Numbered from the stretch's first letter, positions 25,184-47,491 are shown. The stretch: DNA of 64,000 bases from Spirulina sp. (GCA_044070495.1 JBIPSI010000016.1:64001-128000), one strand, 5' to 3'. Notes: generated from the letters alone by a model not told the origin. Translations and numbers: made by a program.

Positions 25184-25190
25184 CGCGACC

Positions 25191-25570: not shown

Positions 25571-25642
25571 GCCGATGTGGCTCAGTGGTAGAGCACTCGA
25601 TTCGTAATCGAGCGGTCGCGGGTTCAAATCCCGCCATCGGCT
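25571..25642 (+). tRNA. trnT: tRNA-Thr(CGT)
   Basis: Acceptor stem GCCGATG/CATCGGC, D arm GCTCAGTGGTAGAGC, anticodon arm CTCGA-TTCGTAA-TCGAG, T arm GGTTCAAATCC. Confidence 0.96.
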
Positions 25643-25923: not shown

Positions 25924-26075
25924 ATGATCCACATCATTCGCCAGAGAGCAGAACCTGAGCAGATGCGTCAGATGCTAGAGGCGCTGGGAATTTACATTAA
26001 ACTGGCGGCAGATGTTAAGCGCCGCATTCTGGCTAGAGGAGGCGAATTGCAGTTCTATTGGACGATGGCAGCCAG
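25924..26075 (+). pseudogene. DUF5674-family gene fragment
   Basis: MIHIIRQRAEPEQMRQMLEALGIYIKLAADVKRRILARGGEL, after which the frame breaks. Confidence 0.6.
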
Positions 26076-26146
26076 CGCGGCCTGCCTATACTCTTGACGA
26101 GCAAGGCGTTTTCTAGCAAGCTTTGAAGGCTTGCCTGCACCTCTGA

Positions 26147-28466: not shown

Positions 28467-28470
28467 TGCG

Positions 28471-30837: not shown

Positions 30838-30925
30838 TCAGGGCTTACCCCCTCATCGAAACGTTACAAAATTGACAATCTCTGGCCCCCTTCCCCCATA
30901 CTTTGGAGGATAAATCCCTAGGAGC

Positions 30926-31663
30926 ATGACCATGAGACGTGCTGTGATGCGATCGTCCCTATCCGCCGCCATCTCCCTGGGGGTAGCTGCTGCCCTGGGA
31001 TGGCCCCTGGTGCCTGTGGCCCAGGCCGTGCCTACCCCACCCGACCAGGGCGCACCCAGCGGACGGCAGCGAGGTGGAGCTTCTCGCGGTGACTGTATGG
31101 CCTATCAAGGCTTGACCGCGCTGGTGCCCGTAGTGGATGGCAGCGTCTGGAGTCAGACCCATAGCCCCACCCCCGACTTCTTCTTTTACATTCCGCAATC
31201 CCTCACCGCAGACGTTCCCCTAGAGATGGTGGTGCAGGATAGCGACGATAACTACGTCTTCCGCAAGCAGTTCTCCGTCGATGCCGCCGCTGGCATTCTC
31301 ACGGTTCCGGTTAGCCCTGCCGAGACTGAACTGACCCCCGGCGAAAGCTACTCCTGGACCTTTTCAATCTACTGCGATGCAGCTCGTCCGTCGGCCTCGG
31401 TTGCTGTGTTTGGCACGGTTACTCGAGTGGCGGCTGGGACAATGCCTGAAGCAGGTCACCCCCTTACCCCGGCGCAACAGCTTGACCTGGCCAAGCAGTA
31501 TGCCGCTGCCGGGATCTGGCACGAAGCATTGGGGCTGACCCTGGCGCTGCATCAGGCCGACCCAGACAATGCCGAATACCTCGAAGCGTTGGATGCGCTG
31601 CTTCAACAGGCTGGACTGGCGGACTTATCGCCTGCTGTGTCGGTGAGTGAGGTGCCTGAGTGA
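30926..31663 (+). CDS. DUF928 domain protein
   Basis: Signal peptide, GGASRGDC, LTALVP, FFFYIP, YSWTFSIYC, YAAAGIWHEAL. Confidence 0.88.
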   Translation: MTMRRAVMRSSLSAAISLGVAAALGWPLVPVAQAVPTPPDQGAPSGRQRGGASRGDCMAYQGLTALVPVVDGSVWSQTHSPTPDFFFYIPQSLTADVPLEMVVQDSDDNYVFRKQFSVDAAAGILTVPVSPAETELTPGESYSWTFSIYCDAARPSASVAVFGTVTRVAAGTMPEAGHPLTPAQQLDLAKQYAAAGIWHEALGLTLALHQADPDNAEYLEALDALLQQAGLADLSPAVSVSEVPE

Positions 31664-31711
31664 TGGGGGCGGGGTGGTAGTGGGATGGTGGGGTAGTGAG
31701 ATGGTGGGAAG

Positions 31712-34678
31712 ATGGGGAGTTATGAAACCGGTGTAATTCGTGCTCGTTGGCCTTTGGCCGCAGGAGCTGCACTTTTGGGCATGGTTGGCAGCCCCTTTCT
31801 GGTGCAGGCGCAGGTGATCCCAGATGCCACCCTACCGTCAGAAAACTCTATCGTCACCACCGATGGCACGACCTCTCAAATCACGGGTGGGGCCATTCGG
31901 GGCGGCAACCTGTTCCACAGTTTTGAGCAGTTTTCGGTGCCCTTGGGCGATACCGTTGTCTTTGCCAACGGGGACAGCTTTGCCAACATCATCAACCGCG
32001 TCACCGGGGGGACGCTTTCGGATCTCCAGGGGACGATCCAGGCGGGCGGTAACGCCAATGTATTCCTGATCAACCCCGCAGGTATTGTGTTTGGCCCCAA
32101 TGCCCGGTTGGAGATAGGCGGCTCTTTCTTCGCCAGCACGGGGGAAGGGCTGCGGTTTGAGACTGGGTTTGTGTACGATGTCGCTGGCGCTGAGGCCCCG
32201 CCGCTGCTGACCATCAGTGCGCCCATCGGTCTCCGCTTGGGCAATGTTTCAGGGGGCAATGCCCCAGGGGATGTAGTGGTGGCTGGGGCAGACCTCTCCA
32301 TGGCTGAGGGCCAAACCCTGGCCTTGATTGGAGGGAATATCTCCCTGACGGGAGCGCAGCTCACTACCCCTGGAGGCCGCATTGAAGTTGGCAGCGTACA
32401 GGCAGGCCAGGAGCTAGGACTCGCCCCTGACGGGCTAGGGTTTGATGTGGGCTTCGACGGCGTGAATAACTTTGGCGATATTCAACTTTCTAATCGGTCG
32501 GTCTTGAATGCCAGCGGCGCAGGCGGGGGGGCGATCGCACTTCACGGCAATACAGTCACCCTATCCGGTCAGTCAGCCATTATTTCCGATACCCTGGGCG
32601 ATCAGGATGGTCGCGGTGTGCAAATTACTGCCGACAGTCTTCAACTCTTGGATAGCTCCTACATCGGGGCAGCGAGCCTAGGGCGCGGAGCCTCTAGCAG
32701 CATCGATATCACGGCAAACGATATCGTAATGGTCGGCACTGGCATCGCCAACTACAAACTTGTTGAGTTCAGTACCTTTTTAGGAGCCAGGCAGATTAGC
32801 GATCGCCAAATTGGTGGCATTTCTACAACCACCGTTGCGTCGGGCCGAACCGGAAACATCTCCTTAAATGCTCAAAACATATTGATGGATGAAGGGGTGT
32901 TGCTGTCTACCGAGTCATTTGGCACGGGCGACAGCGGTGATATTAATATTACTGCCACCGAATCGCTCCGCCTAAGAGGGTCAGGTGTTGTGTCGGGTAG
33001 TCAAGTGTCTGGAATACCCCTAGTCACTCCCGGTGGTATTCCCACTGGATTATCCACTAGTAACATTCCAGCAGGTGAGGGTGGACGTATTGCGATCAAT
33101 ACAGCCCAGCTAGCTGTAGAAGATGGTAGTGCAATTGCAGCTATGACCCAAAGCGATCAACGTTCGGGAGATGTTGTTATCAGCGTCTCAGATTCAATCA
33201 CGTTAAGGGGCTTTTTTGCCCCTTTCTTCCTTCCAACATCAGTCACGACTATTACGATTGGTGGTAACGGGACAGCCGGAAATTTGCAAATTGAAACAGG
33301 TCGTTTAATTGTTCAAGATAGCTCAGCCATCTATGCCGACTCGGGTAGTCGAGGCATAGATGGCAACGTTACTTTTGGTGGAATAGCTGGTGATATATCT
33401 ATCGTTGCCACTAATTCAGTTGATATTGTCGGCAATCGAACTGTTGTGGCTGGATTAGCAGCTAGTGGTGTGCGATCAAGAACCTTTTCTGATTCACCCG
33501 CAGGCACCATCCAGATCACCACACCAATCCTGAATGTTCGTGACGGCGGTCTCATTAGCAGTGCTACGTTGAATGACGGAGCAGGCGGTGCAATCAACAT
33601 TGATGCCCAGACAGTTGTTGTGTCAGGGGATAGGAATCGCCCCACCGAAACCTTCAGCAGTATTGGTGCCAGTTCAGGTATTGAGCGGCAGACAGCGTTT
33701 ACCACCGGAGCGATTGAGTCTTTGCCCGCTGCTGGATCTGGGGGAAGCATCACCATCAATGCGACGAATCTAGCCTTACAAGGTGCCGCTGAAATATCTG
33801 TGGGGAGTTTTGGGTCAGGCACTGCTGGCAACCTTGACATTACAGCTAATACCGTTCGTCTAAATGATGGCGGCAGTCTAACTGCAACAACGACCTCCGG
33901 TGGAGGGGGCAATATTGCTCTGACATCCCAGACCCTGGCTCTTGACGGCAGCCACATCACCGCCAGTTCGGATAGCGGCGATGGCGGCAACCTGGCTTTT
34001 CATCTTCAGGATTTTCTACTGCTGAGAAACGGTAGTTTAATCTCTACTGAAGCGGGGACAGATGGGGCTGGGGGCAACGGCGGCGACATTGCCCTCAACC
34101 TGCCCACTGGCTTTCTCGTTGCCGTACCCACGGAAAATAGCGACATTCGCGCCAATGCCTTTGAGGGGGATGGCGGCAGCGTCACCATCACCGCCCGCAG
34201 TCTGCTGGGGATCGAATTTCGTCCTGACGTGATCGATACGCCCCTCAGCGACATTACCGCCAGCTCCCGTTTTGGCAACAGCGGCACGGTCACCATTGAC
34301 GAACTGGCCCCAGATATCGCCCAGGACGATGTGGCCCTTCCGACTGAAACAGCGCCAACAGAACTGGCCCAGGGCTGTCGGGGGCAGGGGGCACAGGCGG
34401 GTAGCTTCGTAGTTACCGGGCGTGGCGGTCTGCCCACCAACCCGGCTGATTCGCTCAGCGCCGATTCCGTTTGGCAAGATTTGGCTCCCATTCCGCTGAC
34501 TGAGGACGGTGCGGAGCCATCTTCTGAGGCCCCCGATCCTGAACCCATGGTTGCGGCTACCCCCATAGTCGAAGCCCAAAGCTGGACTAGGGCTGAGGAT
34601 GGCACAGTAATGCTCCTGGCGGATGCCACCGCTGCGCCAGATCACTTTGTGTCAAGAGTGAATTGTGCGGGTAATTGA
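31712..34678 (+). CDS. Filamentous haemagglutinin-like TpsA protein
   Basis: AQVIPDATL, NLFHSFEQFSV, NIINRVTGG, LINPAGIVFGPNA, GGxIxI beta-helix repeats, FVVTGRGGLP, IVEAQSW. Confidence 0.92.
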   Translation: MGSYETGVIRARWPLAAGAALLGMVGSPFLVQAQVIPDATLPSENSIVTTDGTTSQITGGAIRGGNLFHSFEQFSVPLGDTVVFANGDSFANIINRVTGGTLSDLQGTIQAGGNANVFLINPAGIVFGPNARLEIGGSFFASTGEGLRFETGFVYDVAGAEAPPLLTISAPIGLRLGNVSGGNAPGDVVVAGADLSMAEGQTLALIGGNISLTGAQLTTPGGRIEVGSVQAGQELGLAPDGLGFDVGFDGVNNFGDIQLSNRSVLNASGAGGGAIALHGNTVTLSGQSAIISDTLGDQDGRGVQITADSLQLLDSSYIGAASLGRGASSSIDITANDIVMVGTGIANYKLVEFSTFLGARQISDRQIGGISTTTVASGRTGNISLNAQNILMDEGVLLSTESFGTGDSGDINITATESLRLRGSGVVSGSQVSGIPLVTPGGIPTGLSTSNIPAGEGGRIAINTAQLAVEDGSAIAAMTQSDQRSGDVVISVSDSITLRGFFAPFFLPTSVTTITIGGNGTAGNLQIETGRLIVQDSSAIYADSGSRGIDGNVTFGGIAGDISIVATNSVDIVGNRTVVAGLAASGVRSRTFSDSPAGTIQITTPILNVRDGGLISSATLNDGAGGAINIDAQTVVVSGDRNRPTETFSSIGASSGIERQTAFTTGAIESLPAAGSGGSITINATNLALQGAAEISVGSFGSGTAGNLDITANTVRLNDGGSLTATTTSGGGGNIALTSQTLALDGSHITASSDSGDGGNLAFHLQDFLLLRNGSLISTEAGTDGAGGNGGDIALNLPTGFLVAVPTENSDIRANAFEGDGGSVTITARSLLGIEFRPDVIDTPLSDITASSRFGNSGTVTIDELAPDIAQDDVALPTETAPTELAQGCRGQGAQAGSFVVTGRGGLPTNPADSLSADSVWQDLAPIPLTEDGAEPSSEAPDPEPMVAATPIVEAQSWTRAEDGTVMLLADATAAPDHFVSRVNCAGN

Positions 34679-34694
34679 GCGAGGACAGGGGTGA

Positions 34695-34922
34695 CTATGC
34701 CAAAGTGCCAAGCCACGGAACGACCTCATCATCAGGACGCCCCACCACCATGGCAGCGACATCAGTGACCTTGTAGACCCACCCATCCATGACTACCTGG
34801 TAGTTCGGTAGAACCTGGGGAGTCAGGGCTCTGGCCATTTCTGCCACCAGCTGATTGTGAAAGTCTGCCCCGTAGTCAGGCGGCTCCAAATACGGATTGG
34901 CTCATGGGAAAGGGTTGCTCAT
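34695..34922 (-). pseudogene. DUF4058-family fragment
   Basis: Frameshifted MSNPFP.../NPYLEPPDYGADFHNQLVAEMARALTPQVLPNY. Confidence 0.6.
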
Positions 34923-35046
34923 GGCACGAAAGATCACCGAGGCATCTTGCTGAGATTCTAGCCCCTGACCCTGGAAAGCGGGCCTTGGTCAACCTCACAG
35001 GGGGTGATCCGGTCGGATTCGGTTTCAAAAGCATCGAAAAATTTTC

Positions 35047-35093
35047 TCAAAGTCAGGGCTGAGCCCTGCATACTTCGTTCCGATCCGCCGTAT
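35047..35093 (+). promoter_or_regulatory. Putative alternative-sigma promoter, copy 1
   Basis: tcaaagtcagggctgagccc TGCATACT (35067) N13 CCGTAT (35088). Confidence 0.7.
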
Positions 35094-35150
35094 ACGCCTT
35101 TAATCAGCGGTATCCGTTGGGAGAAAAGCGACGGCCTGAGGGGGCTACTT

Positions 35151-35276
35151 GGTTGACTGACAAAAGATCCTGCGCCGGACGCGGAAACCGTGCCCCTACA
35201 GGATTTGGATAATGTAGGGGTCAGGTCTCCTGACCCTTTGGCGGATTTGGGTTCTCGCAAGTTTTGTCAGTCAACC
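35151..35276. mobile_element. MITE-like/REP-doublet dispersed repeat, copy 1
   Basis: TIR ggttgactgacaaaa/ttttgtcagtcaacc with internal cccctac...gtagggg; homologous to 56830-56955. Confidence 0.75.
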
Positions 35277-35400
35277 AGGGGGGCTACTGGCCCTGGTGAC
35301 AGTCAAAAGTCAGCCCAGAGGCGATCGCACCTCTACTTTCAAGACAATCAACAGGAGTTAGAAACGGTGAACCTGAACGGATGTTGGAGTTGACGTCACT

Positions 35401-36960
35401 GTGAAACGCTATCTAGCTCATCTGTTTCAAATTTCAGTTAATCGTCCGGTTACGACCGTTATGGTTGCGATTTTTTTGACGCTGTCACTGTTTTTACCTC
35501 TGGGTTGGAGCGCCTGGAATGCGTACCAAACCTTTAGCCGCGTCATCGTCAATGACTTTCGCCTGCAATATCTGGTGGGTTCAATTATTCACCTGGATGA
35601 AGTGCTCACCATGTCAGCTCGGATGAACGCTGCTACGGGCGATACCCGCTGGGAAGGGCGCTACAACGACTTTGAACCGCAATTGGATGCTGTGATCAAA
35701 GAAGCAATCGCGATCGCCCCAGACACCTACGAAGGGGAAGGCGCTGCGCAAACCGACATTGCTAACCAAAAGCTGGTCGCCATGGAAGTGCAGTCGTTTG
35801 AACTGGTGCGCAACGGGCAGCAGGCAGCGGCAGCCGATTTACTGTTTAGTGCCAATTATGAACAGCAAAAAGTGATCTACGCCGAGGGCATTCAGCGGGG
35901 ACTCGACGCCACCCAGGAGCGAATTCGCGAGAACCAGAAAAATTTTGCTCAGCAGCTAATTCTTGCCAGTGCGATCGCCGCCTTCAGCCTGCTAATTCTG
36001 CTGCCAATCTGGTGGGTAGTCTTGCAGGTCTTGCAGCGCTACCTAGACGCTCGTAACACCGCAGAACATGCCCTCCACGCCGCCAAAGATCAGCTAGAAG
36101 CTGTCTTAGACGCCGTACCCGGCCCCATCTCTTGGATTGATGCGGGCGGCGTTTATATTGGCGTCAATCGGTACCTAGCCAACAGCTGGAGCATGGCCCA
36201 GGGAGCATTTATTGGGCGCAGCGTTAACTCCCTCAACGGCAATGCCCAACTGGCCCAGTTTTTGCAGGAGTTCCTCACAAACTCCCGTAAATCGGACTCC
36301 CGCACCATCGAAGTCGAAATTAAAGGCGTACTCCGCTACTTTCTCGTCGCGGTGCAAAAGTATCAGCGGGGTACAGCGGCGGTTTCGGTGGGCATTGATA
36401 TCACCGAGCGCAAACAGGCCGAAGAAGCCCTACGTGTCGCCGAAGAAAACTATCGCAGCATCTTTGAAAATGCCCTCGAAGGAATTTTTCAATCCTCCCC
36501 AGAGGGCTACTTCATCAGGGTTAATCCAGCCCTGGCAAAGATTTACGGCTATGACTCACCCCACGACATGATCAAAAGCATTACCAATATTTCAAAACAG
36601 CTCTATGTGGATGCAGAAAGACGGGCAGAATTCATCACCGCGATTGAAAAATATGGCACCGTCAAAGATTTTGAATACCGTGGCTACTGTAAAAATGGCC
36701 GCATTATCTGGACTCAAATTGATGCCCGTGCGGTTACCGATGGTAATGGCAAAGTGATCTACTACGAAGGTATTGTGCAGGACATAACTGAACGCAAGCA
36801 GCAAGAAGAGTCCTGGAAGCGGCAGTTGCAGGAATTACAAATCGAAATTGACCATAAGCAGCGGGCGCGTCAAGTCGCTGAAATCAGCTCAACGGACTAT
36901 TTTCAACAGTTGATGGCCGAAGCCGATGATTTAAGAAATTTTGATAATGAGTGGAGTTGA
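35401..36960 (+). CDS. Membrane sensor with two PAS domains and no catalytic output domain
   Basis: TM - periplasmic helical domain (IIHLDEVLTMSARM) - TM - PAS (DITERK) - PAS (DITERK) - tail LQIEIDHKQRARQVAEISSTDYFQQL. Confidence 0.82.
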   Translation: MKRYLAHLFQISVNRPVTTVMVAIFLTLSLFLPLGWSAWNAYQTFSRVIVNDFRLQYLVGSIIHLDEVLTMSARMNAATGDTRWEGRYNDFEPQLDAVIKEAIAIAPDTYEGEGAAQTDIANQKLVAMEVQSFELVRNGQQAAAADLLFSANYEQQKVIYAEGIQRGLDATQERIRENQKNFAQQLILASAIAAFSLLILLPIWWVVLQVLQRYLDARNTAEHALHAAKDQLEAVLDAVPGPISWIDAGGVYIGVNRYLANSWSMAQGAFIGRSVNSLNGNAQLAQFLQEFLTNSRKSDSRTIEVEIKGVLRYFLVAVQKYQRGTAAVSVGIDITERKQAEEALRVAEENYRSIFENALEGIFQSSPEGYFIRVNPALAKIYGYDSPHDMIKSITNISKQLYVDAERRAEFITAIEKYGTVKDFEYRGYCKNGRIIWTQIDARAVTDGNGKVIYYEGIVQDITERKQQEESWKRQLQELQIEIDHKQRARQVAEISSTDYFQQLMAEADDLRNFDNEWS

Positions 36961-36963
36961 CCC

Positions 36964-37722
36964 ATGGCCGAAGTTGTATTGGTTCATTCCTTTCGCGGTG
37001 GCACCGGAAAATCTAACACCACCGCCAATTTGGCGACCACAATCGCCCGCACGGGCAAACGGGTGGCGGTGATCGACACTGATATTCAATCCCCTGGTAT
37101 TCACGTGTTGTTTAGCATGGAACAGGTCGATTCCCAAATCACGCTTAACCAATATTTGTGGGGCAACTGTTCTGTAGAGGAGGTCGCCCATGATGTCAGC
37201 CCCGATGAGGTGAAACAGAACGGCGGGCAGGTATTTTTAGTGCCATCGAGTAGCGATGCGGGCGACATCACCCGAATTTTGCACGAAGGGTATGACGTGC
37301 GTCTGTTAAAAAAAGGCTTTGCCAGCCTGATCAAAACGCTCACCCTGGACTATGTTTTTGTAGATAGCCATCCAGGATTGAACGAAGAAACCCTGCTGTG
37401 CATCGCGGTTGCCAACACGCTGATCGTGATTTTGCGCCCCGACCGTCAAGACTTTCAGGGTACTGCCGTGATGGTCGATTTGGCCCAAAAGCTCAAGGTG
37501 CCCAGAATTTTGATGGTGGTGAATCGGGTGATGCAAAATTCTGACCCCGAGATGGTGCGCCAACAACTTCAAGCCAAATATGAGGTGCCCGTCGTCGGGG
37601 TGTTGCCCAACTGCGACGAGATGATGCAGCTCGCCAGCAGCGATTTGTTTTCGCTGCGATATCCGGATCATCCCCTGACCCAGATTTACCACCAGGTGGC
37701 CGATAAGGTTATGACCACCTAA
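36964..37722 (+). CDS. MinD/ParA family ATPase
   Basis: HSFRGGTGKS, IDTDIQSPG, VDSHPG, RPDRQDFQGT. Confidence 0.9.
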   Translation: MAEVVLVHSFRGGTGKSNTTANLATTIARTGKRVAVIDTDIQSPGIHVLFSMEQVDSQITLNQYLWGNCSVEEVAHDVSPDEVKQNGGQVFLVPSSSDAGDITRILHEGYDVRLLKKGFASLIKTLTLDYVFVDSHPGLNEETLLCIAVANTLIVILRPDRQDFQGTAVMVDLAQKLKVPRILMVVNRVMQNSDPEMVRQQLQAKYEVPVVGVLPNCDEMMQLASSDLFSLRYPDHPLTQIYHQVADKVMTT

Positions 37723-37747
37723 GCCCTTTCGTAATACTGGCTCAGCC

Positions 37748-40000
37748 ATGAAAGCTTCCTCCCGCAAGTCCCAACTACCTCAATTCACCCTAGGCACCCA
37801 AGTGCGTCAGGAATTACAGCCTGCTCGGCTCGTCCCCACGCTGACAGCAGGGTTGATTACGGGAGTTCTGCTGGTGATTTACGCCATTTCAATGGCAGCG
37901 TTAATCTTTACTGGTTCTCTCGTCGAATTTATTCCCATTGGCATTGGCTTAACGCTGTTCACGGCGATTGTTATAGCCATCATCGTGGCGTTAACAAACT
38001 CGATGCCAGGAATCGTCATCATGCCCCAGGATTCTCCAGCGATCATTCTGGCCATGATGGCGAGTGCGATCGCAGCCCAACTGCCAGCCTCTGATCCGGC
38101 CCTGTTACCCACGGTGATGATGGCACTGGCAATCGCCACCGGAGTCGTGGGTATCGTTTACTTTTTACTTGGCTCCTTCAAACTCGGCAATTTAATCCGC
38201 TTTATTCCCTATCCAGTGGTGGGCGGCTTTCTGGCGGGCACTGGCTACTTACTTGCCCAGGGTGCCTTCAACGTAATGACGGATCAGTTTTTTAATCTAG
38301 CGGATTTACCGGCTTTACTGACCCCAACGATGGCTGTACGTTGGCTACCCGGCTGTGCCGTTGGCCTGACTTTAGTGGTCTTGCTGCGCCGCTACAACAA
38401 TGTGTTTATTATGCCGGGCATTATCGTTGGCAGCACCCTGGCGTTTTATTTGACCCTATGGCTAACTCGAACACCCATCAGCCATGCCCAGGAGTTGGGG
38501 CTGCTCTTTGGCGATTTCCCTAAAGGTGGGCTGTGGCAACCCCTGCATTGGTCAATGCTGACCCAGGTCAACTGGGCGCTCATTTTAGGTCAGGTCGATA
38601 AAATGGCGACCGTGACACTGCTTTCAGTGATTGCTCTTTTGCTGAACGTGTCGGGTATTGAGCTGGCCGCCCGTCAGGATATCGACCTGAACCGGGAGCT
38701 GCAATCAACCGGGATTGCCAATGTGATTGTTGGCCTAGGCGGTGGCATTGTGGGTTTCCATGCCCTGGGTCTATCCGTTTTAAGCTGCGCCAAAATTAAT
38801 GCCAAAAGTCGTCTGGTAGGAGTGCTCGCCGCCAGTATTTGTGTCGTTACCCTGCTGCTGGGGGATACGTTGGTCACGTTGTTTCCGAAACCGGTGCTAG
38901 GAGGGGTGGCTCTATTTTTGGGTTTAAGCTTTTTGGTGGAGTGGGTCTACGACGCCTGGTTTAAGCTGCCGAAAACAGATTATGGCATTGTTATCTTGAT
39001 CCTGTTTGTAATTGCCACCGTTGGCTTTTTACAGGGGGTCGGCGTCGGTATCGTCGTCGCCATTGCCCTGTTTGTAGTCAGTTCTAGCCGAGTCAACGTC
39101 ACCAAACACATCCTCTCCGGTGCCACCCACCAGAGCCACAGGGCTCGCAGCTTACCCCAAACCCGAATTCTTCAGGAGGAAGGCGATCAGATCTACATTC
39201 TCGATTTGCAGGGGTTTCTTTTTTTTGGCACTGCCAATGCCCTACTAAAGCGCGTTCAAGATAGGCTTAATGATAACTGCCTCACTCCCTTAAAGTACGT
39301 CGTTCTCGACTTTCAGGCGGTCAACGGACTCGACTCTTCAGCGGTACTCAGCTTTGTCCGCCTCAAGCAACTCTTGCAGCAACAGCAGGTCAAACTGGTG
39401 CTGACCCATCTCAGCCCAGCGATTCGCACCCAGCTCAAGCGGGGGGGATGCCTACTGCCGGATGACCTGGCTTGTCAGGCGTTTGCCGATCGCGATCGCG
39501 GCCTGGAATGGTGTGAAAATGACCTGCTCGGGGTGATTCCCCTACGACGCGCCCGCACTCTGCCGCTGCTGCTTCAGCTCAATGATCTGTTTCCGGCCCG
39601 TGATGTCGCCACTGAATTCATCGACTACCTGGAAGAGTGGGACGCCGAACCAGGGGAATACATCTATCAACAGGGTCAGCCCGCCGATACCCTTGATCTG
39701 ATCGAAGTGGGTGAGGTGGCCGTATATCTGGATGGGCAACAGGAACAAACTCATCGCATTCAAGCGCTAGGGGCAGGCAACGTGGTCGGAGCGGTAGATT
39801 TTTTCCGTCACTCCAATCACCAAACGACAGCGATCGTCGAAGCGCCCAGCACCCTCTATCGATTAACGGTAGAGAGCTTCCAGCGTATGGAAAAAGAGCA
39901 CCCCGAGGTGGCAACGGCGTTTCAGGCGGCGGTGATTCAAATTTTGGGTGATCGGCTCACCTATGCCTACAAAGAAATTGCCGACCTGCTGCGATCGTGA
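37748..40000 (+). CDS. SulP anion transporter with STAS and cNMP-binding domains
   Basis: RFIPYPVVGGFLAG, DLNRELQSTG, LQGFLFFGTA, DSSAV, C-terminal cNMP fold. Confidence 0.9.
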   Translation: MKASSRKSQLPQFTLGTQVRQELQPARLVPTLTAGLITGVLLVIYAISMAALIFTGSLVEFIPIGIGLTLFTAIVIAIIVALTNSMPGIVIMPQDSPAIILAMMASAIAAQLPASDPALLPTVMMALAIATGVVGIVYFLLGSFKLGNLIRFIPYPVVGGFLAGTGYLLAQGAFNVMTDQFFNLADLPALLTPTMAVRWLPGCAVGLTLVVLLRRYNNVFIMPGIIVGSTLAFYLTLWLTRTPISHAQELGLLFGDFPKGGLWQPLHWSMLTQVNWALILGQVDKMATVTLLSVIALLLNVSGIELAARQDIDLNRELQSTGIANVIVGLGGGIVGFHALGLSVLSCAKINAKSRLVGVLAASICVVTLLLGDTLVTLFPKPVLGGVALFLGLSFLVEWVYDAWFKLPKTDYGIVILILFVIATVGFLQGVGVGIVVAIALFVVSSSRVNVTKHILSGATHQSHRARSLPQTRILQEEGDQIYILDLQGFLFFGTANALLKRVQDRLNDNCLTPLKYVVLDFQAVNGLDSSAVLSFVRLKQLLQQQQVKLVLTHLSPAIRTQLKRGGCLLPDDLACQAFADRDRGLEWCENDLLGVIPLRRARTLPLLLQLNDLFPARDVATEFIDYLEEWDAEPGEYIYQQGQPADTLDLIEVGEVAVYLDGQQEQTHRIQALGAGNVVGAVDFFRHSNHQTTAIVEAPSTLYRLTVESFQRMEKEHPEVATAFQAAVIQILGDRLTYAYKEIADLLRS

Positions 40001-40022
40001 GGCAGCTCATGGGCCAGATATT

Positions 40023-40049
40023 TGCATACTTAGCCCAAACCAGCCGTAT
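40023..40049 (+). promoter_or_regulatory. Putative alternative-sigma promoter, copy 2
   Basis: TGCATACT tagcccaaaccag CCGTAT. Confidence 0.6.
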
Positions 40050-40289
40050 ATGTTTGTGAGTTAAATCTCACTTACAAAACCACCGGCCAGGGCTGCGAAC
40101 TATCTTTTGATATTCCGGTACTGGTCATTTTTTTGACCACCCAAGCAGAGCCCTACTTAGAGCCTGCCCCTATGCTTGAAATGCGAGTCAAGGCACGACT
40201 GACGGGACGCGAATTCTTATAGGCGATGCAAGGCCCGCTCCAAGTATGACGCTTGGGGGGCGATCGCTAATATTTGCCAAACGAAAGTT

Positions 40290-40336
40290 TCAAATTCAGG
40301 CCTGAGAATTGCATACTCACCCTATGGCAGCCGTAT
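40290..40336 (+). promoter_or_regulatory. Putative alternative-sigma promoter, copy 3
   Basis: tcaaattcaggcctgagaat TGCATACT (40310) N13 CCGTAT (40331), ~75 nt before the patatin ATG. Confidence 0.7.
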
Positions 40337-40410
40337 TATCCTGTGAGCACATCGTTTGGCTCACCGTTAACGATAAATTTAGGGCCAGATACCATATAAG
40401 AGCAATCTCT

Positions 40411-41472
40411 ATGAAGAAAATTCTGAGTATCGACGGCGGTGGCATTCGAGGTTTGATTCCGGCCATGGTGCTGACAGAAATTGAAAGGAGAACCAATCAG
40501 CCCATTTCAAAGAGCTTTGATCTAATCGCAGGTACTTCAACTGGAGGAATTCTAGCGCTTGGGCTTAGTAAGGCTGACGAGAGCGGGCAGCCCGAATTTT
40601 CTGCCAAAGCCCTGAGCGAAATCTATACAAATCACGGCAAAACCATATTTCCCCAGGGCACCTGGGCTTCTGCTGCCCGGCACCTTTGGGTCGGATTTGG
40701 TATGTCGGAGAAAATTTATTCTCACCAAGGCTTAGAAGAAGTGCTTAGGGATAAGGTTGGAAATGCAACCCTGGGTGATGCGCTGGGTAGAGTACTGATT
40801 TCAACCTACGACATTGTCGGTGGAGAACCTGTCTTTTTCAAAAGCTGGGATGGCCCCCACAAAGCCGTGAAGATGGTTGATGTGGCTCGCGCTACATCGG
40901 CGGCCCCTACCTACTTCGAGCCTCACCAAGTAACGATTACCTACGAAAAAGAAGAGTATTTTGAGAAGTATAACCTGAGCTACAAAAAAGAAAAATTCAA
41001 GAAAATTATTGTCGAGAAAGTCATTGATGGAAAAGAGATGATTGAAAAAACGTACACATTGGTGGATGGAGGAATTTGTATCAATTCTCCCGCAGTTTCC
41101 GCCTATGCCGAGGCTAAGCGCCTTTTTCCTGAAGAGCAAGACTTTTTAGTCCTGTCATTGGGCACAGGGCAAATTAATCCTGAAACGACTTACCAGCAAG
41201 CGAGGGCTTGGGGGATGGCTTCCTGGGCTAGGCCACTGATCAAGTTCATGTTTGATGGTGTCTCTGATGTGGCCGACTATCAACTGCGAAATATTTTGAG
41301 CGGCGAACCTAAGCGTTACTACCGCATGCAGACCGATATCCATGAGGATTCGGGTGCCATGGATCTTGCCAGTGATGAAAATATTCTCAGATTAATCAAC
41401 GGCGCTACAAGTCTGATCAGAGAGCAAGATGCAAACCTGAATGAACTCTGTGGTTTGCTAAGCGGCTCATAG
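40411..41472 (+). CDS. Patatin-like phospholipase
   Basis: ILSIDGGGIRG, GTSTG, ATSAAPTYF, DGG, LSLGTG. Confidence 0.92.
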   Translation: MKKILSIDGGGIRGLIPAMVLTEIERRTNQPISKSFDLIAGTSTGGILALGLSKADESGQPEFSAKALSEIYTNHGKTIFPQGTWASAARHLWVGFGMSEKIYSHQGLEEVLRDKVGNATLGDALGRVLISTYDIVGGEPVFFKSWDGPHKAVKMVDVARATSAAPTYFEPHQVTITYEKEEYFEKYNLSYKKEKFKKIIVEKVIDGKEMIEKTYTLVDGGICINSPAVSAYAEAKRLFPEEQDFLVLSLGTGQINPETTYQQARAWGMASWARPLIKFMFDGVSDVADYQLRNILSGEPKRYYRMQTDIHEDSGAMDLASDENILRLINGATSLIREQDANLNELCGLLSGS

Positions 41473-41523
41473 CGCCTGCATAGATGCTTCAGTTTGTCCA
41501 TTTGTATACTTTTTATCACTGCC

Positions 41524-42561
41524 ATGACTCTTCTTTCAAACAGCCTCAAGATTTCTGCAACAGTAACGACAGCTGCTCTCCTAGCTACCTGCTTTTCCCC
41601 TAGTGCGATCGCCGACCAGCCGACCATTGTCACCGTTCAGAAACTCACCGCTGGCGATCGCGCCTGCTATGTCGATGTCATTGATGCGGGGGGAGTCTAC
41701 TCTACAGAATATGCAGCTTTCGAGGTTTGTGAGCAAGATTTAGTCGGTAGAGACGTGAATCTTATCTATGAGCCGGGCAGCATTATAGCTGTCTCGTGCC
41801 AGGGCGATCCGGCCTGTAGCGAAACTGAAACGGTGATGCTGATTACCCAGGCTGAAATCATCGAGGCTCCGACAGTGGGCGTTATCCATGAGGTTATTGT
41901 AGGGGACAGAGCCTGTGATATTGGATTTACAGATGAAACGGGAGAACTCTGGTACCGCCAAGCAACCTTTGCAGTCTGTAATCAAGATTTAATCGGTGAC
42001 ACTGCGCAATTTACCTATGAAGTAGCGGAGATTTCAGCCTATGCTTGCGAGGGCGATCCAACCTGTGAGCAAACCGATGTCGTGACTCTGATTACCAATG
42101 TCGAAATTGTTTCTGACTTGACCCCCAATTTAATCAATGATAGACCTCAAGGTCGCGTGCAGGATCTCCCCGATGGCAACTATCGCTACTGGAGCGGCAC
42201 CACCGATCAAAGTATTGTTTCTGACGATATCCTGATCAATAACGGAGGCACCTTATTTCTGTTCCGAAAGCAGGGTGATAATGTTACAGGCATTTTCTCT
42301 TATGTGAATGCGGAAGCCATCTGTATTAGCGGCCAAGTCAATGGCAACACCGTCAGCGGTCGGGCGGTGCAAACGGGGGAGGGGATTTCTGTCCTGAGTA
42401 GCGGAGAAACCTTTGCAAACTTTGGGCCGAGTGAGACCTTGTCTCTACGTCGAGGTCGCCAGGTCAGCGATGAACAGGTTCGCTATGGCAGCGCCCTTCT
42501 AAATCTCGCAGAACTCAATCGCATTAATGCCGGTACAGCCCTTCCCCCAGGAGGATGCTAG
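41524..42561 (+). CDS. Secreted hypothetical protein with a duplicated Cys-containing domain
   Basis: Signal peptide; two copies of GDRAC...F.VC.QDL.G...C.GDP.C..T..V.LIT. Confidence 0.75.
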   Translation: MTLLSNSLKISATVTTAALLATCFSPSAIADQPTIVTVQKLTAGDRACYVDVIDAGGVYSTEYAAFEVCEQDLVGRDVNLIYEPGSIIAVSCQGDPACSETETVMLITQAEIIEAPTVGVIHEVIVGDRACDIGFTDETGELWYRQATFAVCNQDLIGDTAQFTYEVAEISAYACEGDPTCEQTDVVTLITNVEIVSDLTPNLINDRPQGRVQDLPDGNYRYWSGTTDQSIVSDDILINNGGTLFLFRKQGDNVTGIFSYVNAEAICISGQVNGNTVSGRAVQTGEGISVLSSGETFANFGPSETLSLRRGRQVSDEQVRYGSALLNLAELNRINAGTALPPGGC

Positions 42562-42731
42562 AACTCATTATGTGCCCTGAGACTATCAAGAAAAATAGGC
42601 TTGGGGTGCGTGACAGTTTTCCTTCAACAGATCGTTTCAACCTGTGCTAGCGTAGGTAGATCGCAGGGCTTGATTTGAATGAGATCGTCTACGGGTGAGG
42701 TGCGATCAATGATAGTTGCCAAAAGAAATTC

Positions 42732-42778
42732 TCAAACTTAGGGCTGAGAGCTGCATACTCCGTAAACATCAACCGTAT
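42732..42778 (+). promoter_or_regulatory. Putative alternative-sigma promoter, copy 4
   Basis: tcaaacttagggctgagagc TGCATACT (42752) N13 CCGTAT (42773), ~30 nt before ATG 42808. Confidence 0.72.
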
Positions 42779-42807
42779 ATGTTCTTAGACTACATGGAGA
42801 AGTATTT

Positions 42808-43713
42808 ATGTTATTGATACCTGAACTTGAAAGAGTAAACCATTGGGCTTCGGTTCACAGTCCACTACATTCCCATAGATCTGCAAAGCGCGAACGTCAA
42901 TCGGTAACACATTTTGCACCATTATTCCTTACAGAAAGTAACGTTGGCGAGCATGGCTTTCAACCGCCTGTAGTCTCTGGAAGCGCTTTAGTCGGAGATG
43001 GGAAGGAAAATGGCTTAAGGAAAGATTTAGAAGTAGGCAATTGTCTACCTGGTTTAGGAGAACCTCTTACTGCAGAGGGGTATAATGCTCTGTTAGAACA
43101 ATATCGTGGAAGTCCGCTCACTGGTTGTACAACCGTAATGGATATGGCAAGGATAAAAGCCGGTTATAACCCCCTTAGTCCAGACTTTGACGGTAATAAG
43201 TCAGCTTTCGATGATTACGTTTCAAGAATAATGCAGTCTCCTTTTTTCTTTCTCGATTATTCAAGCCGAACGGATTATCACAAGGAAGAGCAAAATTGGG
43301 ATCAAGCGATTAGTGGAATTGCTGATCTCTATGAGGGAATTGAATCTGGCAGTAAAGATTCAATAGTCAAAAGCTTAGCAGCCATGGCCCAGGCAGCAGC
43401 CTCAAGAAAGAACACAAAAAACACGCAGAACTTGTTTGCGCAAAGCACAATAAGCATCAATGATAAAATCGAGGTTTTTATTTACTCCAGCCTAGTTGAG
43501 ATGGAGGAAAGCCAGTCTAAGGGTAGCGATTCTAAGCAGACTGATATGACCATCATAAAAGCTAAGTTAACCTTTTACAGCACTATGTGGCCATCATACG
43601 CGCAGATGGTGCTAGGTCATCATATAAAGCTAACGAGTGATTGGTTAGACGAGAATACATTAAAGTCAGGTTCTGAAACAACAAATCTGAATTTAGGACA
43701 AAATAAAGCATAG
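42808..43713 (+). CDS. Hypothetical protein, probable Evf (Erwinia virulence factor)/Cyt-like fold
   Basis: GGAG RBS. SPLTGCTTVMDMARIKAGYNP, SLAAMA, NLFAQSTI and DWLDEN resemble Evf as I recall it. AT-rich. Confidence 0.6.
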   Translation: MLLIPELERVNHWASVHSPLHSHRSAKRERQSVTHFAPLFLTESNVGEHGFQPPVVSGSALVGDGKENGLRKDLEVGNCLPGLGEPLTAEGYNALLEQYRGSPLTGCTTVMDMARIKAGYNPLSPDFDGNKSAFDDYVSRIMQSPFFFLDYSSRTDYHKEEQNWDQAISGIADLYEGIESGSKDSIVKSLAAMAQAAASRKNTKNTQNLFAQSTISINDKIEVFIYSSLVEMEESQSKGSDSKQTDMTIIKAKLTFYSTMWPSYAQMVLGHHIKLTSDWLDENTLKSGSETTNLNLGQNKA

Positions 43714-43737
43714 GGTGAGACTGGTTTCGCAAAAACA

Positions 43738-43780
43738 CAAGATTGGGAGATTAATGAAGTTTCGTCATCTCCCAATCTTA
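43738..43780. terminator. Hairpin between the two Evf-like genes
   Basis: aagattgggagat ... atctcccaatctt. Confidence 0.55.
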
Positions 43781-43833
43781 TTGATTACACATCGAAATCC
43801 GCGAAAAATATACCGAATAGGCTTTTGACTAGA

Positions 43834-44697
43834 ATGAATTTAGAAAGCACTAATAAGTGGATTGAACACGTAAACAGTTTTCCGGTTGAATTTAATCTTG
43901 ATCCTACCCGTATCCATCCGTTCACCCTTGAGCTTCCATCTAGCATATCAACTAACAATAAAACGTCTGGTGTGGGCGCAATATTATTAGGAAAAGGAAT
44001 AACAGAAGTTCATAAGCAAGCGGAAGAGCTGGCAGCAACAAAGCCAGAGGAAAGACCGTGGGAAAATTCAGATTGGTTAGATAAATTTAGTGCTTCTCCT
44101 GCAAACGGATTGGCCAGCATTTTAGGTTTTATACAGCATAGAGTGAACTGGAATCCAATTAGAAATTCCGAAGCGACACGGAATAATTTCTCGGCCTTTA
44201 TTAACCTACTTTCACTTAGCCCATATTTGGCACATAATATTGTTGACAAAACCAAAGTTAACTTCAAGAATAAAGACTATCCGAAGATAATTGATGAAAT
44301 TCTATCTCTGTACACTGGATTATCTCCTGAGCAAATGCAGGATGTGAAGACTAACTTGCGGCAAATGGTGTATGCGGCTTTATCAGAAGCGGGTAGTCAG
44401 CAAACCAATACATTATTTGTTCAAAACATTATGGAAGTTAAGACGCCAGACATAATAGCTTTCTACGTGTACTCTTCGAAGGTTTCATTTATTTACCATG
44501 GCGGGAAGCATCATTTCATGGAGACACATGCCATAATTGATCGCATTAAACTTATCTTTGATGCATCAAAGGTTTGGAATCGTACCACTGCTGCAATTGT
44601 TTCTGGAATCCTATATAACGATGTCAATCAATGGTTAGAAAACAATAATGCTCCTGATAAACAGTCGATTCAACCCACAATAGATCTGTGTTTCTAA
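43834..44697 (+). CDS. Paralogue of 42808-43713, probable Evf/Cyt-like
   Basis: SPANG...NWNP, LSPY, LYTGL, TNTLFVQN, YVYSS, QWLENN align with the upstream gene; AT-rich. Confidence 0.55.
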   Translation: MNLESTNKWIEHVNSFPVEFNLDPTRIHPFTLELPSSISTNNKTSGVGAILLGKGITEVHKQAEELAATKPEERPWENSDWLDKFSASPANGLASILGFIQHRVNWNPIRNSEATRNNFSAFINLLSLSPYLAHNIVDKTKVNFKNKDYPKIIDEILSLYTGLSPEQMQDVKTNLRQMVYAALSEAGSQQTNTLFVQNIMEVKTPDIIAFYVYSSKVSFIYHGGKHHFMETHAIIDRIKLIFDASKVWNRTTAAIVSGILYNDVNQWLENNNAPDKQSIQPTIDLCF

Positions 44698-44899
44698 TTA
44701 TTTTATAATCTCATAACTAAGATTTCCGTTTTCTTGGGTATGTTGTCGTCCATCGTGTAGAGAATAAACGTTGCTAAACAGTTTGAATCGGTATACAGTG
44801 TTGGTAAAGTGCCAAAAGGGTTGCCCCGGCCTCACTAGCCTGAAATAGTCTGTATGGCTAATTGCTTAATACTGCAAAGTATCCGCTAGATCATTTTCT

Positions 44900-47491
44900 A
44901 TGGCGTGGCGCATTGATAGCGTGCTTTCCTGGCTGCGGCTATTCAAACTAAGCCTTTACCTATTTTTAGGCATAGTCCTTGCCTTCACTCCCGTTTGGGG
45001 ACTTAGTCTAGTCCATGCTGGAGAAGCGAGAATGGCTGAGATCGCCGCTTCCCCCTCGCCTAACGACCTGCTCGATCAGGGTCGCCAAGCTTATACATCC
45101 CAGCGATATATCGAGGCTGTAGCCGCTTGGGAAGAGTCAACAATGTTATTCACTGATCGCCCGCTCCAGCAAGCCCTGGCTCTCGGCTATCTCACCCTGG
45201 CGCACCAGCAACTCAGCCAGTGGGACGCCGCCGATCGCACCATCACCCACAGCTTAAACCTCCTCGCCACCGCCCCCGACTCCCCCCAAAAGCTGGCCGT
45301 GAGCGCCCAGGTTCACAACACCCTCGGCAGCCTGCAATTTGCCCTAGGGCAGACCCAGGCTGCCCTAGAAACCTGGCACACCGCTGCCGAGCTGTACAAG
45401 CAAACCGGAGACGAAAGCCGCTACGTCAACGCTCTCCTAAACCAGGTACAGGCCCAGCAGTCATTGGGATACTACCAGCCCGCGCGGCGTACCCTGGCGA
45501 CCCTGGAGCAGCGCCTGCCGCTACAGTCGCTGCCCGTGCAGGTGCTGGGCTATCAACGGCTAGGGCAGACCTACCGCCTGCTGGGCGACCTGGAAATGGC
45601 CCAGGCTCATTTGCAGACTGCTTTGGAACTGGCGCAGCGAGAGCGCTTAGCCACGGGGGCCATCTTGCTGGGGCTGGCCAATACGGCCCAGGGGCAGGGA
45701 GACTGGCAGAGCGCAATCGCTCTCTACCAGCAAGCCGAACAGACCCAGGAATCCGACATTCGCCTCAAGGCCCGCCTGAACCGACTCAGCCTGTTAGCCC
45801 AGCACGATCCTGAGGCGGCTCCACCGCTGGCCGTCTCTCTACCGAGAGATCTAGCCGAAATGCCCCCAGGGCGCAGCCAGATCTATGCCCACATCAACGC
45901 GGCCCAAAGCCTGCTCCAGCTTAAAACCCCTGCTGAGGTCGAAACCGCTGCCCGACTGCTGGCCCAGGCCATTCAGCAGAGCATGGCCTTGCAAGATACC
46001 CGTGCCGAAGCCTATGCCAGGGGCTATCTGGGCCACGCCTACGAGGTCTCCCAGCAGTGGCCGGAGGCGCAGCAGTTAACCGAGCAAGCTCTGACCCTGG
46101 CCCAAGCCCTCAATGCCGCCGATATCGCCTACCAGTGGCACTGGCAGCTAGGTCGCCTGCTCAATCAACAGGGGCAACCAAACCTGGCTTTGCCAGCCTA
46201 CCGGAATGCTTTCACCGCCCTGCAATCCCTCAAACAAGATCTAGTAGCCGTCAGCGACGACCTCCAGTTCTCCTTTCGCGACAGCGTCGAGCCAGTCTAC
46301 CGAGAGCTGGTCGATCTGCTGCTGCAACCGGAACCCCAAACACCCTCTTCCGTCACCCCACCACCCCACTACCCCACCACCCGCCTCACCGAAGCCCGCT
46401 TAGTCATCGAAGCCTTGCAGATCGCCGAACTCAACAATTTCTTTAGAACCGCCTGCCTGGAGGGTGAGCAGGTCGCCCTTGAGGCGGTGAGTCAGTCCAC
46501 CACCGCCGTCATTTACCCAATTATTCTGCCGGATCGGCTGGAGATCATCGCCAGTCTGCCGGGGCAGCCCCTGCGGCAGTACACCAGCCCAGTGCCCCAG
46601 GCAGCGCTGGAGCAGACCCTGACGGACTGGCGGCAAAACCTGGAACGGCGGTTCACCGCTCCCGAGGGCAGGGCCCTGGGACAGCAGCTCTACCGCTGGC
46701 TGATTGACCCGATGCAGGAGGTACTGGCCGAAACCCGGCCCCAAACCCTGGTCTTCGTGCTGGATGGTGCCCTGCGAAACACCCCCATGGCGGCCCTGTA
46801 CGACGGGGAGCGGTATTTGGTGGAAGACTATGCGATCGCCCTCTCCCCCGGTCTCCAACTTCTCGGCCCCCGGCCTTTACAGGACAGTCGGATGGCGGCA
46901 CTCTTGGCAGGGCTGACGGAGCCTAGACATGGCTTTAGCGCCCTCACCAACGTGAACAACGAGATTCAAACCATTCAGGCGCTGCTCGACAATCGGGTCT
47001 TGCTCGATGAACAGTTCACCACAACAGCCCTAGCCCAGCAGATCGCAAAGACTGAGCTGCCCATTGTGCACCTGGCCACCCATGCCCAGTACAGCTCTAA
47101 TCTGCAAGACACCTTCATTCTGGCCTGGGATCGCCCCATGCCGGTGGATGAGTTGAGCCTCCTGCTCAGCGCCGGAGACCAGAGCCGGGTGGAACCCATT
47201 GAGCTGCTGGTGCTCAGCGCCTGCGAGACGGCCACCGGAGACAACCGCGCCGCCCTGGGTTTGGCGGGTCTGTCGCTCCAGGCGGGTGCCCGCAGTACCC
47301 TGGCCTCCCTGTGGAATTTAGACGACGCTTCTGGAGCGTATTTTATTCGCCAGTTCTATCAAGCCCTGGCCCAGCCCGGTGCAACTAAAGCCAAAGCGCT
47401 GCGCCAGGCCCAAAGGTCGCTGCTACAGCATCCTGACTACCGCCATCCGATCTATTGGTCGGCCTATGTGCTGGTGGGAAACTGGCTGTAG
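44900..47491 (+). CDS. TPR + CHAT domain protein
   Basis: N-terminal signal/TM, TPR repeats, FRDSVEPVY, VHLATHA, LLVLSACETA, ASLW, HPIYWSAYVLVGNWL. Confidence 0.92.
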   Translation: MAWRIDSVLSWLRLFKLSLYLFLGIVLAFTPVWGLSLVHAGEARMAEIAASPSPNDLLDQGRQAYTSQRYIEAVAAWEESTMLFTDRPLQQALALGYLTLAHQQLSQWDAADRTITHSLNLLATAPDSPQKLAVSAQVHNTLGSLQFALGQTQAALETWHTAAELYKQTGDESRYVNALLNQVQAQQSLGYYQPARRTLATLEQRLPLQSLPVQVLGYQRLGQTYRLLGDLEMAQAHLQTALELAQRERLATGAILLGLANTAQGQGDWQSAIALYQQAEQTQESDIRLKARLNRLSLLAQHDPEAAPPLAVSLPRDLAEMPPGRSQIYAHINAAQSLLQLKTPAEVETAARLLAQAIQQSMALQDTRAEAYARGYLGHAYEVSQQWPEAQQLTEQALTLAQALNAADIAYQWHWQLGRLLNQQGQPNLALPAYRNAFTALQSLKQDLVAVSDDLQFSFRDSVEPVYRELVDLLLQPEPQTPSSVTPPPHYPTTRLTEARLVIEALQIAELNNFFRTACLEGEQVALEAVSQSTTAVIYPIILPDRLEIIASLPGQPLRQYTSPVPQAALEQTLTDWRQNLERRFTAPEGRALGQQLYRWLIDPMQEVLAETRPQTLVFVLDGALRNTPMAALYDGERYLVEDYAIALSPGLQLLGPRPLQDSRMAALLAGLTEPRHGFSALTNVNNEIQTIQALLDNRVLLDEQFTTTALAQQIAKTELPIVHLATHAQYSSNLQDTFILAWDRPMPVDELSLLLSAGDQSRVEPIELLVLSACETATGDNRAALGLAGLSLQAGARSTLASLWNLDDASGAYFIRQFYQALAQPGATKAKALRQAQRSLLQHPDYRHPIYWSAYVLVGNWL

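Follow-up and report, generated by a model that had tools for sequence, protein, structure and literature searches.

The repeated sequence TGCATACT-N13-CCGTAT, which lies ahead of several unrelated genes in an island of the cyanobacterium Spirulina sp., is probably the cognate promoter of a protease-gated sigma/DUF1822/CHAT-CHASE2 module, and would be read by the island's own sigma factor (26147-27358). We studied this motif in a stretch of 64,000 nucleotides (nt), hereafter the window, that corresponds to contig C16:64001-128000 of a source genome of 5,313,730 bases in 74 contigs (G000; other genomes, contigs and loci are also given by working labels). The original prediction, made on the window, had read the motif as the -35/-10 promoter of the island sigma factor, and our results, all of which are computational, support that reading in silico, with every computational prediction and refuting condition that it had named turning out in its favour. 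The module itself is known from a 2021 prediction; what this analysis adds is the putative promoter and a copy of it within the sigma open reading frame (ORF). The genes and motif copies concerned are listed below, with protein lengths in amino acids (aa).

26147-27358, + strand: sigma-70 family factor, 403 aa (Pfam Sigma70_r4/r2; TIGR02937)
27252-27278, + strand: fifth motif copy, TGCATATT-N13-CCGTAC, within the sigma gene's 3' end; the DUF1822 ATG follows after 64 nt
27342-28466, + strand: DUF1822 protein (Pfam PF08852, E 9.5e-72), overlapping the sigma stop codon by 16 nt
28435-30837, + strand: CHAT (caspase-like) plus CHASE2 putative membrane sensor-protease (Pfam)
30926-31663, + strand: DUF928 protein (Pfam)
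31712-34678, + strand: TPS-domain exoprotein, a two-partner secretion passenger (Pfam PF05860)
35067-35093, + strand: motif copy P1, 308 nt before the PAS gene, with orthologous copies in G058 and G097
35401-40000, + strand: cargo unit 1, comprising PAS (35401-36960), ParA/MinD ATPase (36964-37722) and SulP-STAS-cNMP transporter (37748-40000) genes (Pfam)
40023-40049, + strand: motif copy P2, starting 23 nt past the SulP stop codon
40310-40336, + strand: motif copy P3, 75 nt before the patatin ATG
40411-42561, + strand: cargo unit 2, comprising a patatin-like phospholipase (40411-41472; Pfam) and a 355-aa protein of no known family (41494-42561)
42752-42778, + strand: motif copy P4; the ATG at 42808 is 30 nt further on
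42808-44697, + strand: cargo unit 3, two paralogues (301 aa and 290 aa) without a Pfam family

A search of the whole window confirmed the four exact + strand copies that had been reported (P1 to P4), and the same pattern was found zero times in 100 dinucleotide-preserving shuffles. The reported list had missed one member, the CCGTAC variant at 27252-27278 inside the sigma gene. The claim that no copy lies outside the island held across the genome: at one mismatch or fewer we recovered the same four sites, with a single match for the reversed-pattern control, and a looser scan (spacers of 11-16, up to two mismatches) gave 41 matches with no additional exact one. The core TGCATA-N15-CCGTAY occurred five times in the genome, and all five matches were in the island, on the + strand and within 16 kb of the sigma gene; other spacings of this core gave one match at N16 and none at N12, N13, N14, N17 or N18. 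The strict motif is confined to the island and is not common genome-wide. Mobile repeats are expected as many dispersed copies with shared flanks, whereas the motif is present in five copies, all within 16 kb, and the repeat that adjoins P1, which resembles a miniature inverted-repeat transposable element (MITE), does not cover the motif. As had been described, the spacers between the two blocks differ among copies, and an upstream block, TCAAAnTyAGGsCTGAG, is common to three of the four exact copies. Genus-specific palindromes flank many copies, with TCAGGsCTGA upstream and GTGAGC...GCTCAC hairpins just downstream, and the motif itself contains a weak 4-bp inverted repeat, ATAC...GTAT. The two weak variants proposed near 26085 and 41477 were not recovered at three mismatches or fewer; by eye, the former carries an inserted base and the latter reads TGCATAGA-N13-CCATTT, which lacks the invariant TA.

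The copy inside the sigma gene allowed the motif to be followed through a coding sequence, where it spans codons L369-H370-I371 and x376-V377-L378. We compared 20 loci with sigma orthologues of at least 50% identity and 20 with paralogues of 33-40% identity, or 41 sigma loci with the window's own. The relaxed pattern T[GA]CATA-N15-[ACT]C[GCA]TA was found in 38 of these 41 sigma genes; two of the three without it read TGCATATT-N13-CTGTAY and the third lacks the segment. Among the 21 closer sequences (at least 50% identity), 160 amino-acid-conserved columns have degenerate codons, and just three of them have an invariant third position, all at motif positions: L369 is NTG in 21/21, H370 is CAT in 21/21 (background 54% CAT) and V377 is GTA in 20/20 (background 24%). 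Synonymous sites are otherwise near saturation, with a median pairwise fourfold-site identity of 0.39. Five of the 160 columns overlap the motif, and the chance that all three invariant columns would fall there is 10 in 669,920 when columns are treated as independent. In the distant paralogues (33-40% identity), residue 377 is V, L or I, and its codon is always xTA. This synonymous-site constraint indicates that the embedded copy is under selection at the DNA level in addition to the protein level. We propose that it serves as an internal promoter for DUF1822 and the genes downstream, which would make it a rare case of a promoter kept by selection within the coding sequence of its own sigma factor.

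The motif also behaves as a promoter should with respect to spacing and gene orientation, as the original prediction had held for the window. The 41 sigma loci together comprise 754,974 bases, 18.6% of them outside ORFs, with ORF calls in the fetched loci being rough. At N15 the relaxed pattern gave 81 sites, 38 in sigma genes, 36 intergenic and seven in rough ORFs, two of the latter being the window's own copies overlapping spurious ORFs. N14 gave 11 sites (10 intergenic, one in an ORF), and every other spacing from N9 to N22 gave 0-4 sites, of which 0-3 were intergenic. After six of the 54 non-sigma sites were set aside as lying inside ORFs of at least 150 aa, 48 were scored for direction: ahead of them lay 35 co-directional gene starts and four gene ends, and nine had nothing in front within the DNA examined. 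Behind the same 48 sites were 33 gene ends, 13 gene starts and, in two cases, nothing. The median distance from site to start codon was 181 nt. The downstream genes are diverse, encoding PAS, ParA/MinD and patatin proteins, NACHT and nSTAND1-WD40 NTPases, FG-GAP/RTX giants, CHAT proteins, a Cu/Zn superoxide dismutase, a GerE-type regulator and many small proteins of no known family.

A profile was built from 49 non-redundant non-sigma sites, though one of these is really sigma-internal and was misfiled, and two may be chance matches. Besides the two blocks, it brought out T at position 8, C as a weakly preferred base at -1, and tCa ahead of CCGTAT. It also has an upstream T-tract (-23/-22) that would suit an UP-like element, and a T-A conserved 8-9 nt past CCGTAT, at a suitable place for a start site. 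The middle base of the putative -10 block was G in 32 sites, C in 13 and A in four. A housekeeping sigma-70 promoter has the form TTGACA-N16-18-TATAAT; sigma-70-type promoter prediction over 34700-43000 returned six promoters with none on the + strand. The spacing and the -10 core fit promoters for extracytoplasmic function (ECF) sigma factors: CATA-N16-CGT is present in 5/5 window copies, and CCGTAT, the form in the window's clade, contains the CGT core of ECF -10 elements.

Several lines of evidence point to the island sigma factor as the protein that reads the motif. Its assignment rests on TIGR02937 (90.2 bits against a cut-off of 42.9) and Sigma70_r4 (29.5 bits, passing the Pfam cut-off); Sigma70_r2, at 19.4 bits, falls short of its own cut-off. 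The AlphaFold (AF2) model, with a mean predicted local distance difference test (pLDDT) score of 84.6, was matched by Foldseek at probability 1.0 to SigD, SigB, sigma32, SigA, sigmaS, sigma28 and WhiG, and a sequence search of the PDB gave region-4 matches only, to SigF and FliA. About 150 aa separate region 2 from region 4, and the protein ends in a helical extension. DUF1822 adjoins the sigma gene in 40/40 loci, the two genes overlapping by 3 or 16 nt in 18/21 closer loci, and a homologue of CHAT-CHASE2 is present in 24/40 when the window protein is used as query. Among DNA-binding proteins, the sigma factor alone is linked to the motif in every case; a neighbouring ferredoxin-helix-turn-helix fusion (Fer4-HTH, 23594-25183) was considered as the reader and rejected, as it is found in 0/40 other loci.

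Structure prediction supports binding between the sigma factor and DUF1822. The model of their complex scored 0.83, against 0.01 for the best of three controls, and in benchmarking the mark was reached by 116/157 solved complexes and 2/215 mismatched pairs. Runs agreed in at least 82% of contacts, with partner pLDDT of at least 81. DUF1822 is predicted to contact sigma residues 116-167, 191-203, 325-359 and 362-386, and from the last of these it follows that the helix encoded over the embedded motif lies in the predicted interface. DUF1822 is a candidate anti-sigma factor and predicted sigma-binding partner.

The motif recurs near orthologous sigma-DUF1822 loci in other cyanobacteria, both in related genomes (G058, G097, G168 and G113) and in the fetched loci. 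Related genomes are not independent, and the cross-genome counts that follow are descriptive. The exact motif was found at 12 sites in 10 of the 172 other genomes of the order, with one site for the reversed control; in G058, G097, G168 and G113 the site shares contig and strand with the sigma homologue and is 8-12 kb downstream of it, matching the arrangement in the window. A sigma homologue (E <=1e-20) is present in 64 of the 172 genomes, and in these the relaxed core gave 110 matches (43 genomes with a match) against 32 for the control. In a sample of 300 genomes across the phylum, 33 had a sigma homologue (E <=1e-30), representing 29 genera counting G000, and the embedded motif was present in 18/29 fetched sigma loci from other cyanobacterial families. 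Loci whose internal copy has C as the middle -10 base have external sites with C in 12 cases, G in one and A in none, an agreement between internal and external bases that is partial across all loci and uncorrected for phylogeny.

In ten other-family loci (L070, L075, L076, L078, L080-L082, L084, L085 and L089) we also observed a copy (TGCATAAA..., mostly at N14) just upstream of the sigma start codon. Its downstream block is CCTA or CGTA and it points away from the sigma gene, suggesting a divergent target gene rather than autoregulation.

Together, these data suggest the following working model. TGCATA-N16-CGTA would be the functional reading of the motif, with a -35 element in the upstream block and a -10 element in CGTA(T), and transcription would start about 8-9 nt after CCGTAT. 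Bound across region 2, region 4 and the C-terminal helix, DUF1822 would keep the sigma factor inactive. A signal sensed by CHASE2 would activate the CHAT protease, leading to removal of DUF1822, and the freed sigma factor would then direct RNA polymerase to five promoters, all in the island. Four of these would drive PAS-ParA-SulP, a short conserved non-coding stretch, patatin with the 355-aa protein, and the Evf/Cyt-like pair. The embedded promoter would re-express DUF1822, CHAT-CHASE2, DUF928 and the TPS protein, creating negative feedback.

A number of observations weigh against this model or fit it imperfectly. Four of the 39 sites with a decidable orientation face gene ends, and P2 has no downstream ORF. 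ECF -35 elements typically have an AAC core, which the upstream block TGCATA(C/T)(T/C) lacks. Minimal two-domain ECF sigma factors consist of region 2 and region 4 in about 170-220 aa, whereas the 403-aa island protein resembles three-domain factors more than these; the FliA/WhiG model aligns to its residues 211-347. Upstream of the sigma gene, none of the 41 loci has a copy in the same orientation, which indicates that the usual ECF autoregulation is absent. The full motif is missing from 11/29 sigma genes of other families, seven of which retain the upstream block and differ in the downstream one. Covariation of the -10 base is imperfect, as loci with an internal G (CGTA) have external sites with G in 27 cases, C in 18 and A in five. 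The relaxed core still matches 10 times (eight genomes; control 32) in the 108 genomes that lack a close sigma homologue; five of these eight sigma-negative genomes were checked and 5/5 carry DUF1822 genes, and in one, G152, a DUF1822 gene lies 9-23 kb from the two motif matches. Finally, across the whole of G000 the relaxed pattern is at background, with eight matches at N15 and 1-11 at other spacings, so that we claim no extra targets from it and consider it insufficiently specific for genome-wide target finding.

Three other explanations were weighed against a promoter read by the island sigma factor, and the directionality and asymmetry of the motif, its restriction to sigma-bearing genomes and the embedded copy count against them. 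The motif could be the operator of a non-sigma regulator, either an activator or repressor encoded elsewhere or DUF1822 itself, that merely travels with the module. Two-block motifs of fixed spacing also suit dimeric regulators, and both the ATAC...GTAT repeat and the palindromes flanking many copies would be in keeping with such a protein. We nevertheless regard an operator as unlikely: the motif is asymmetric and its direction is strict, with 35 gene starts and four gene ends ahead of it, CCTA-type sites do not keep the inverted repeat, no DNA-binding family matches DUF1822, the sole neighbouring HTH protein is absent from 40/40 other loci, and no alternative sigma-70-type promoter is predicted beside the copies. 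NtcA-type sites, GTA-N8-TAC, were considered and do not fit the motif sequence.

Somewhat less probable still is that the motif is a promoter inherited with the island genes and read by another alternative sigma factor of the host. The geometry would suit several alternative sigma classes, and the 10 relaxed matches in genomes without a close homologue of the island sigma factor, together with matches scattered over many contigs in G045, G046 and G030, are what such a factor might produce. Set against this, all five copies in G000 lie within 16 kb of the island sigma gene with none elsewhere, a copy is embedded in the sigma gene itself in 38/41 loci and in 18/29 from other families, and matches exceed the control only where a sigma homologue is present (110 vs 32; others 10 vs 32). 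We consider it very improbable that the motif is an RNA-level processing or binding site in read-through transcripts, or a functionless remnant of promoter cassettes that were duplicated. A read-through mRNA would include P2, given its position 23 nt after the SulP stop codon, and about 45 nt of upstream sequence common to three G000 copies suggests cassette duplication; however, both blocks are constant while the spacers vary freely, the blocks show no compensatory pairing with each other, and a motif kept across genera at 33-40% sigma identity, with its synonymous sites under selection, is unlike a dead relic. An RNA hairpin formed between the two blocks was rejected, as the pairing is not kept in CCTA-type sites.

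If the motif is indeed the promoter of the island sigma factor, a wider and distinctly more tentative possibility is that the sigma/DUF1822 pair forms a cyanobacterium-wide, protease-gated private circuit, with a promoter embedded in codons, no sigma autoregulation and cargo recruited by promoter acquisition. One segment of the sigma gene would then specify the helix in contact with DUF1822 and, at the same time, the promoter through which DUF1822 is expressed again. The sigma factor, not being autoregulated, would induce from the module only its inhibitor and its sensor, which amounts to pure negative feedback. Unrelated and often foreign cargo (patatin, Evf/Cyt-like, STAND, RTX and superoxide dismutase genes) would join the circuit by gaining a promoter of about 30 bp, and the module would act as a plug-in regulon serving a programme of cell death or defence. 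Modules of the sigma/DUF1822/caspase-like kind occur widely among cyanobacteria and, in the portion of the 2021 prediction available to us, were proposed to couple sensing to an apoptosis-like or immune response (PMC8195603). A defined promoter would name the genes switched on by the module in any genome, and would give a reporter read-out for finding the trigger and for examining CHAT cleavage of DUF1822.

The module was described by Kaur, Iyer, Burroughs and Aravind (2021), whose paper, as excerpted, reports EACC2-caspase neighbourhoods with an 'ECF sigma factor' and DUF1822 and proposes that the sigma factor regulates 'a multiplicity of genes' (PMC8195603). Members of this system are also expected to carry an EACC2 alpha+beta domain N-terminal to the caspase domain. 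By Pfam, the island contains one arrangement characteristic of the system, adjacent sigma and DUF1822 genes with a CHAT protein bearing a variable sensor, and the gene set is the same as in the excerpts: sigma, DUF1822 and a caspase-like protein with a CHASE2 C-terminus. Relative to the available text of that paper, what is new here is the putative promoter, its candidate target genes, the embedded copy and the predicted sigma-DUF1822 interface (PMC8195603). Literature searches for a published promoter of, or experiments on, the module returned the 2021 prediction and two analogous systems only.

The first of these is DdvS/DdvA of Myxococcus xanthus, in which, according to the available excerpts, a sigma factor of the ECF type and a transmembrane anti-sigma control an island carrying a cyclic oligonucleotide-based antiphage signalling system (CBASS) and CRISPR-Cas (PMC6061681, PMC11506125). 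Four validated promoters of the DdvS island share GTAA-N16-CGT and were found by motif scan (PMC6061681), and DdvA, which has a TPR-CHAT domain, binds both region 2 and region 4 of the sigma factor (PMC11506125). As far as these excerpts go, both systems have a dedicated sigma factor with several island-confined promoters, putative ones here, the spacing and CGT core of GTAA-N16-CGT equal those of CATA-N16-CGT, and a CHAT caspase-like domain occurs in a signalling partner, with sigma regions 2 and 4 bound in DdvA and predicted to be bound here. The excerpts also bring out differences: DdvS is a minimal ECF factor, autoregulated from a promoter upstream of ddvS-ddvA, whereas here the module-proximal copy is inside the sigma ORF; DdvA unites anti-sigma and CHAT in one transmembrane protein, whereas DUF1822 and CHAT-CHASE2 are separate; and the -35 blocks differ, the DdvS promoters being validated and those here putative.

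The second is type III-E CRISPR, where, in the accessible part of the report, the TPR-CHAT protease Csx29 cleaves the sigma inhibitor Csx30 and frees CASP-sigma, with sigma motifs in the locus (PMC10028731). On that account the two share a CHAT protease, putative or known sigma motifs in their own locus and, on the role predicted for DUF1822, a cytoplasmic sigma-binding inhibitor, although cleavage of DUF1822 is something we infer for the island. The trigger described there is an RNA-guided Cas7-11 complex rather than a CHASE2 membrane sensor, the motif sequence is different, and Csx30 is, by name, unrelated to DUF1822.

A comparison with classical, autoregulated ECF operons is also informative. 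The SigW consensus is TGAAAC-N16-CGTA. RpoE-RseA and SigW-RsiW, named as classical sigma/anti-sigma examples in the part of the type III-E report available (PMC10028731), resemble the island in promoter layout, two elements separated by a 16-nt spacer with CGT(A) as the -10 core, and in sigma release by anti-sigma proteolysis, which is proposed here. They differ from it in that the island's -35 block lacks AAC, its sigma gene has no upstream promoter, its sigma factor has an extra middle domain with N- and C-terminal extensions, and the proposed anti-sigma lies outside known anti-sigma families.

The remaining features of the island and its surroundings are as follows.

23594-25183: Fer4-HTH protein, 529 aa, with an N-terminal 4Fe-4S dicluster ferredoxin domain and a C-terminal HTH_31, an unusual fusion
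25571-25642, + strand: tRNA-Thr(CGT) (ARAGORN; Rfam tRNA, 76.8 bits), directly upstream of the module at its left edge
~35149-35279: MITE-like insertion separating P1 from the PAS gene, about 130 bp long and with inverted ends; 93 BLAST matches genome-wide
44900-47491, + strand: TPR-CHAT protein (Pfam), an island member without its own motif copy
47537-49318, + strand: ShlB/FhaC-type transporter (Pfam), an island member without its own motif copy

The labels given earlier to the cargo genes largely stood. Pfam bears out the PAS, ParA/MinD and SulP-STAS-cNMP assignments downstream of P1 and the patatin assignment downstream of P2 and P3. The 301-aa and 290-aa proteins after P4 are indeed a paralogous pair (23% identity, E 8e-14); the 'Evf-like' part of their label is a lead from language-model and structure comparison, which also points to Cyt-toxin-like clusters. 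The 355-aa protein was considered as a second patatin and rejected (BLASTP E 1.5). The core genes (26000-32000) have a GC content of about 62% and the stretch from patatin to the pair (40000-44000) 44-48%, against 56.7% for the genome, a mosaic that suggests recently acquired cargo placed behind the putative module promoter.

We also noted that the transporter gene of cargo unit 1, a fusion of SulP, STAS and cyclic-nucleotide-binding domains, shares one operon with PAS and ParA/MinD, and the same trio follows the motif in G097, G005 and G067. In G067 (locus L062, G067:C186 ~3949-4104), an exact motif with a P3-like spacer directly precedes a gene homologous to that of the 355-aa protein, with no patatin gene present, an arrangement indicating that cargo was gained or lost behind a retained promoter. 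The 301-nt leader between P1 and the PAS gene, which holds the MITE-like element, has an unusually stable predicted fold (z -4.09).

Around P2, similarity between G000 and G097 starts exactly at the motif; the upstream sequence is unrelated and the spacer poorly conserved. About 260 nt after P2 are roughly 90% identical to G097 and contain no conserved ORF. An Rfam scan of 25000-45000 matched the tRNA alone, with nothing in the 5' leaders. The P2-P3 stretch (40050-40300) opens with a hairpin, GTGAGTTAAATCTCAC, and may be a sigma-dependent small RNA or leader. Elsewhere in G000 we observed two further, more divergent DUF1822 genes, at C35:9946-11007 and C12:105364-106455.

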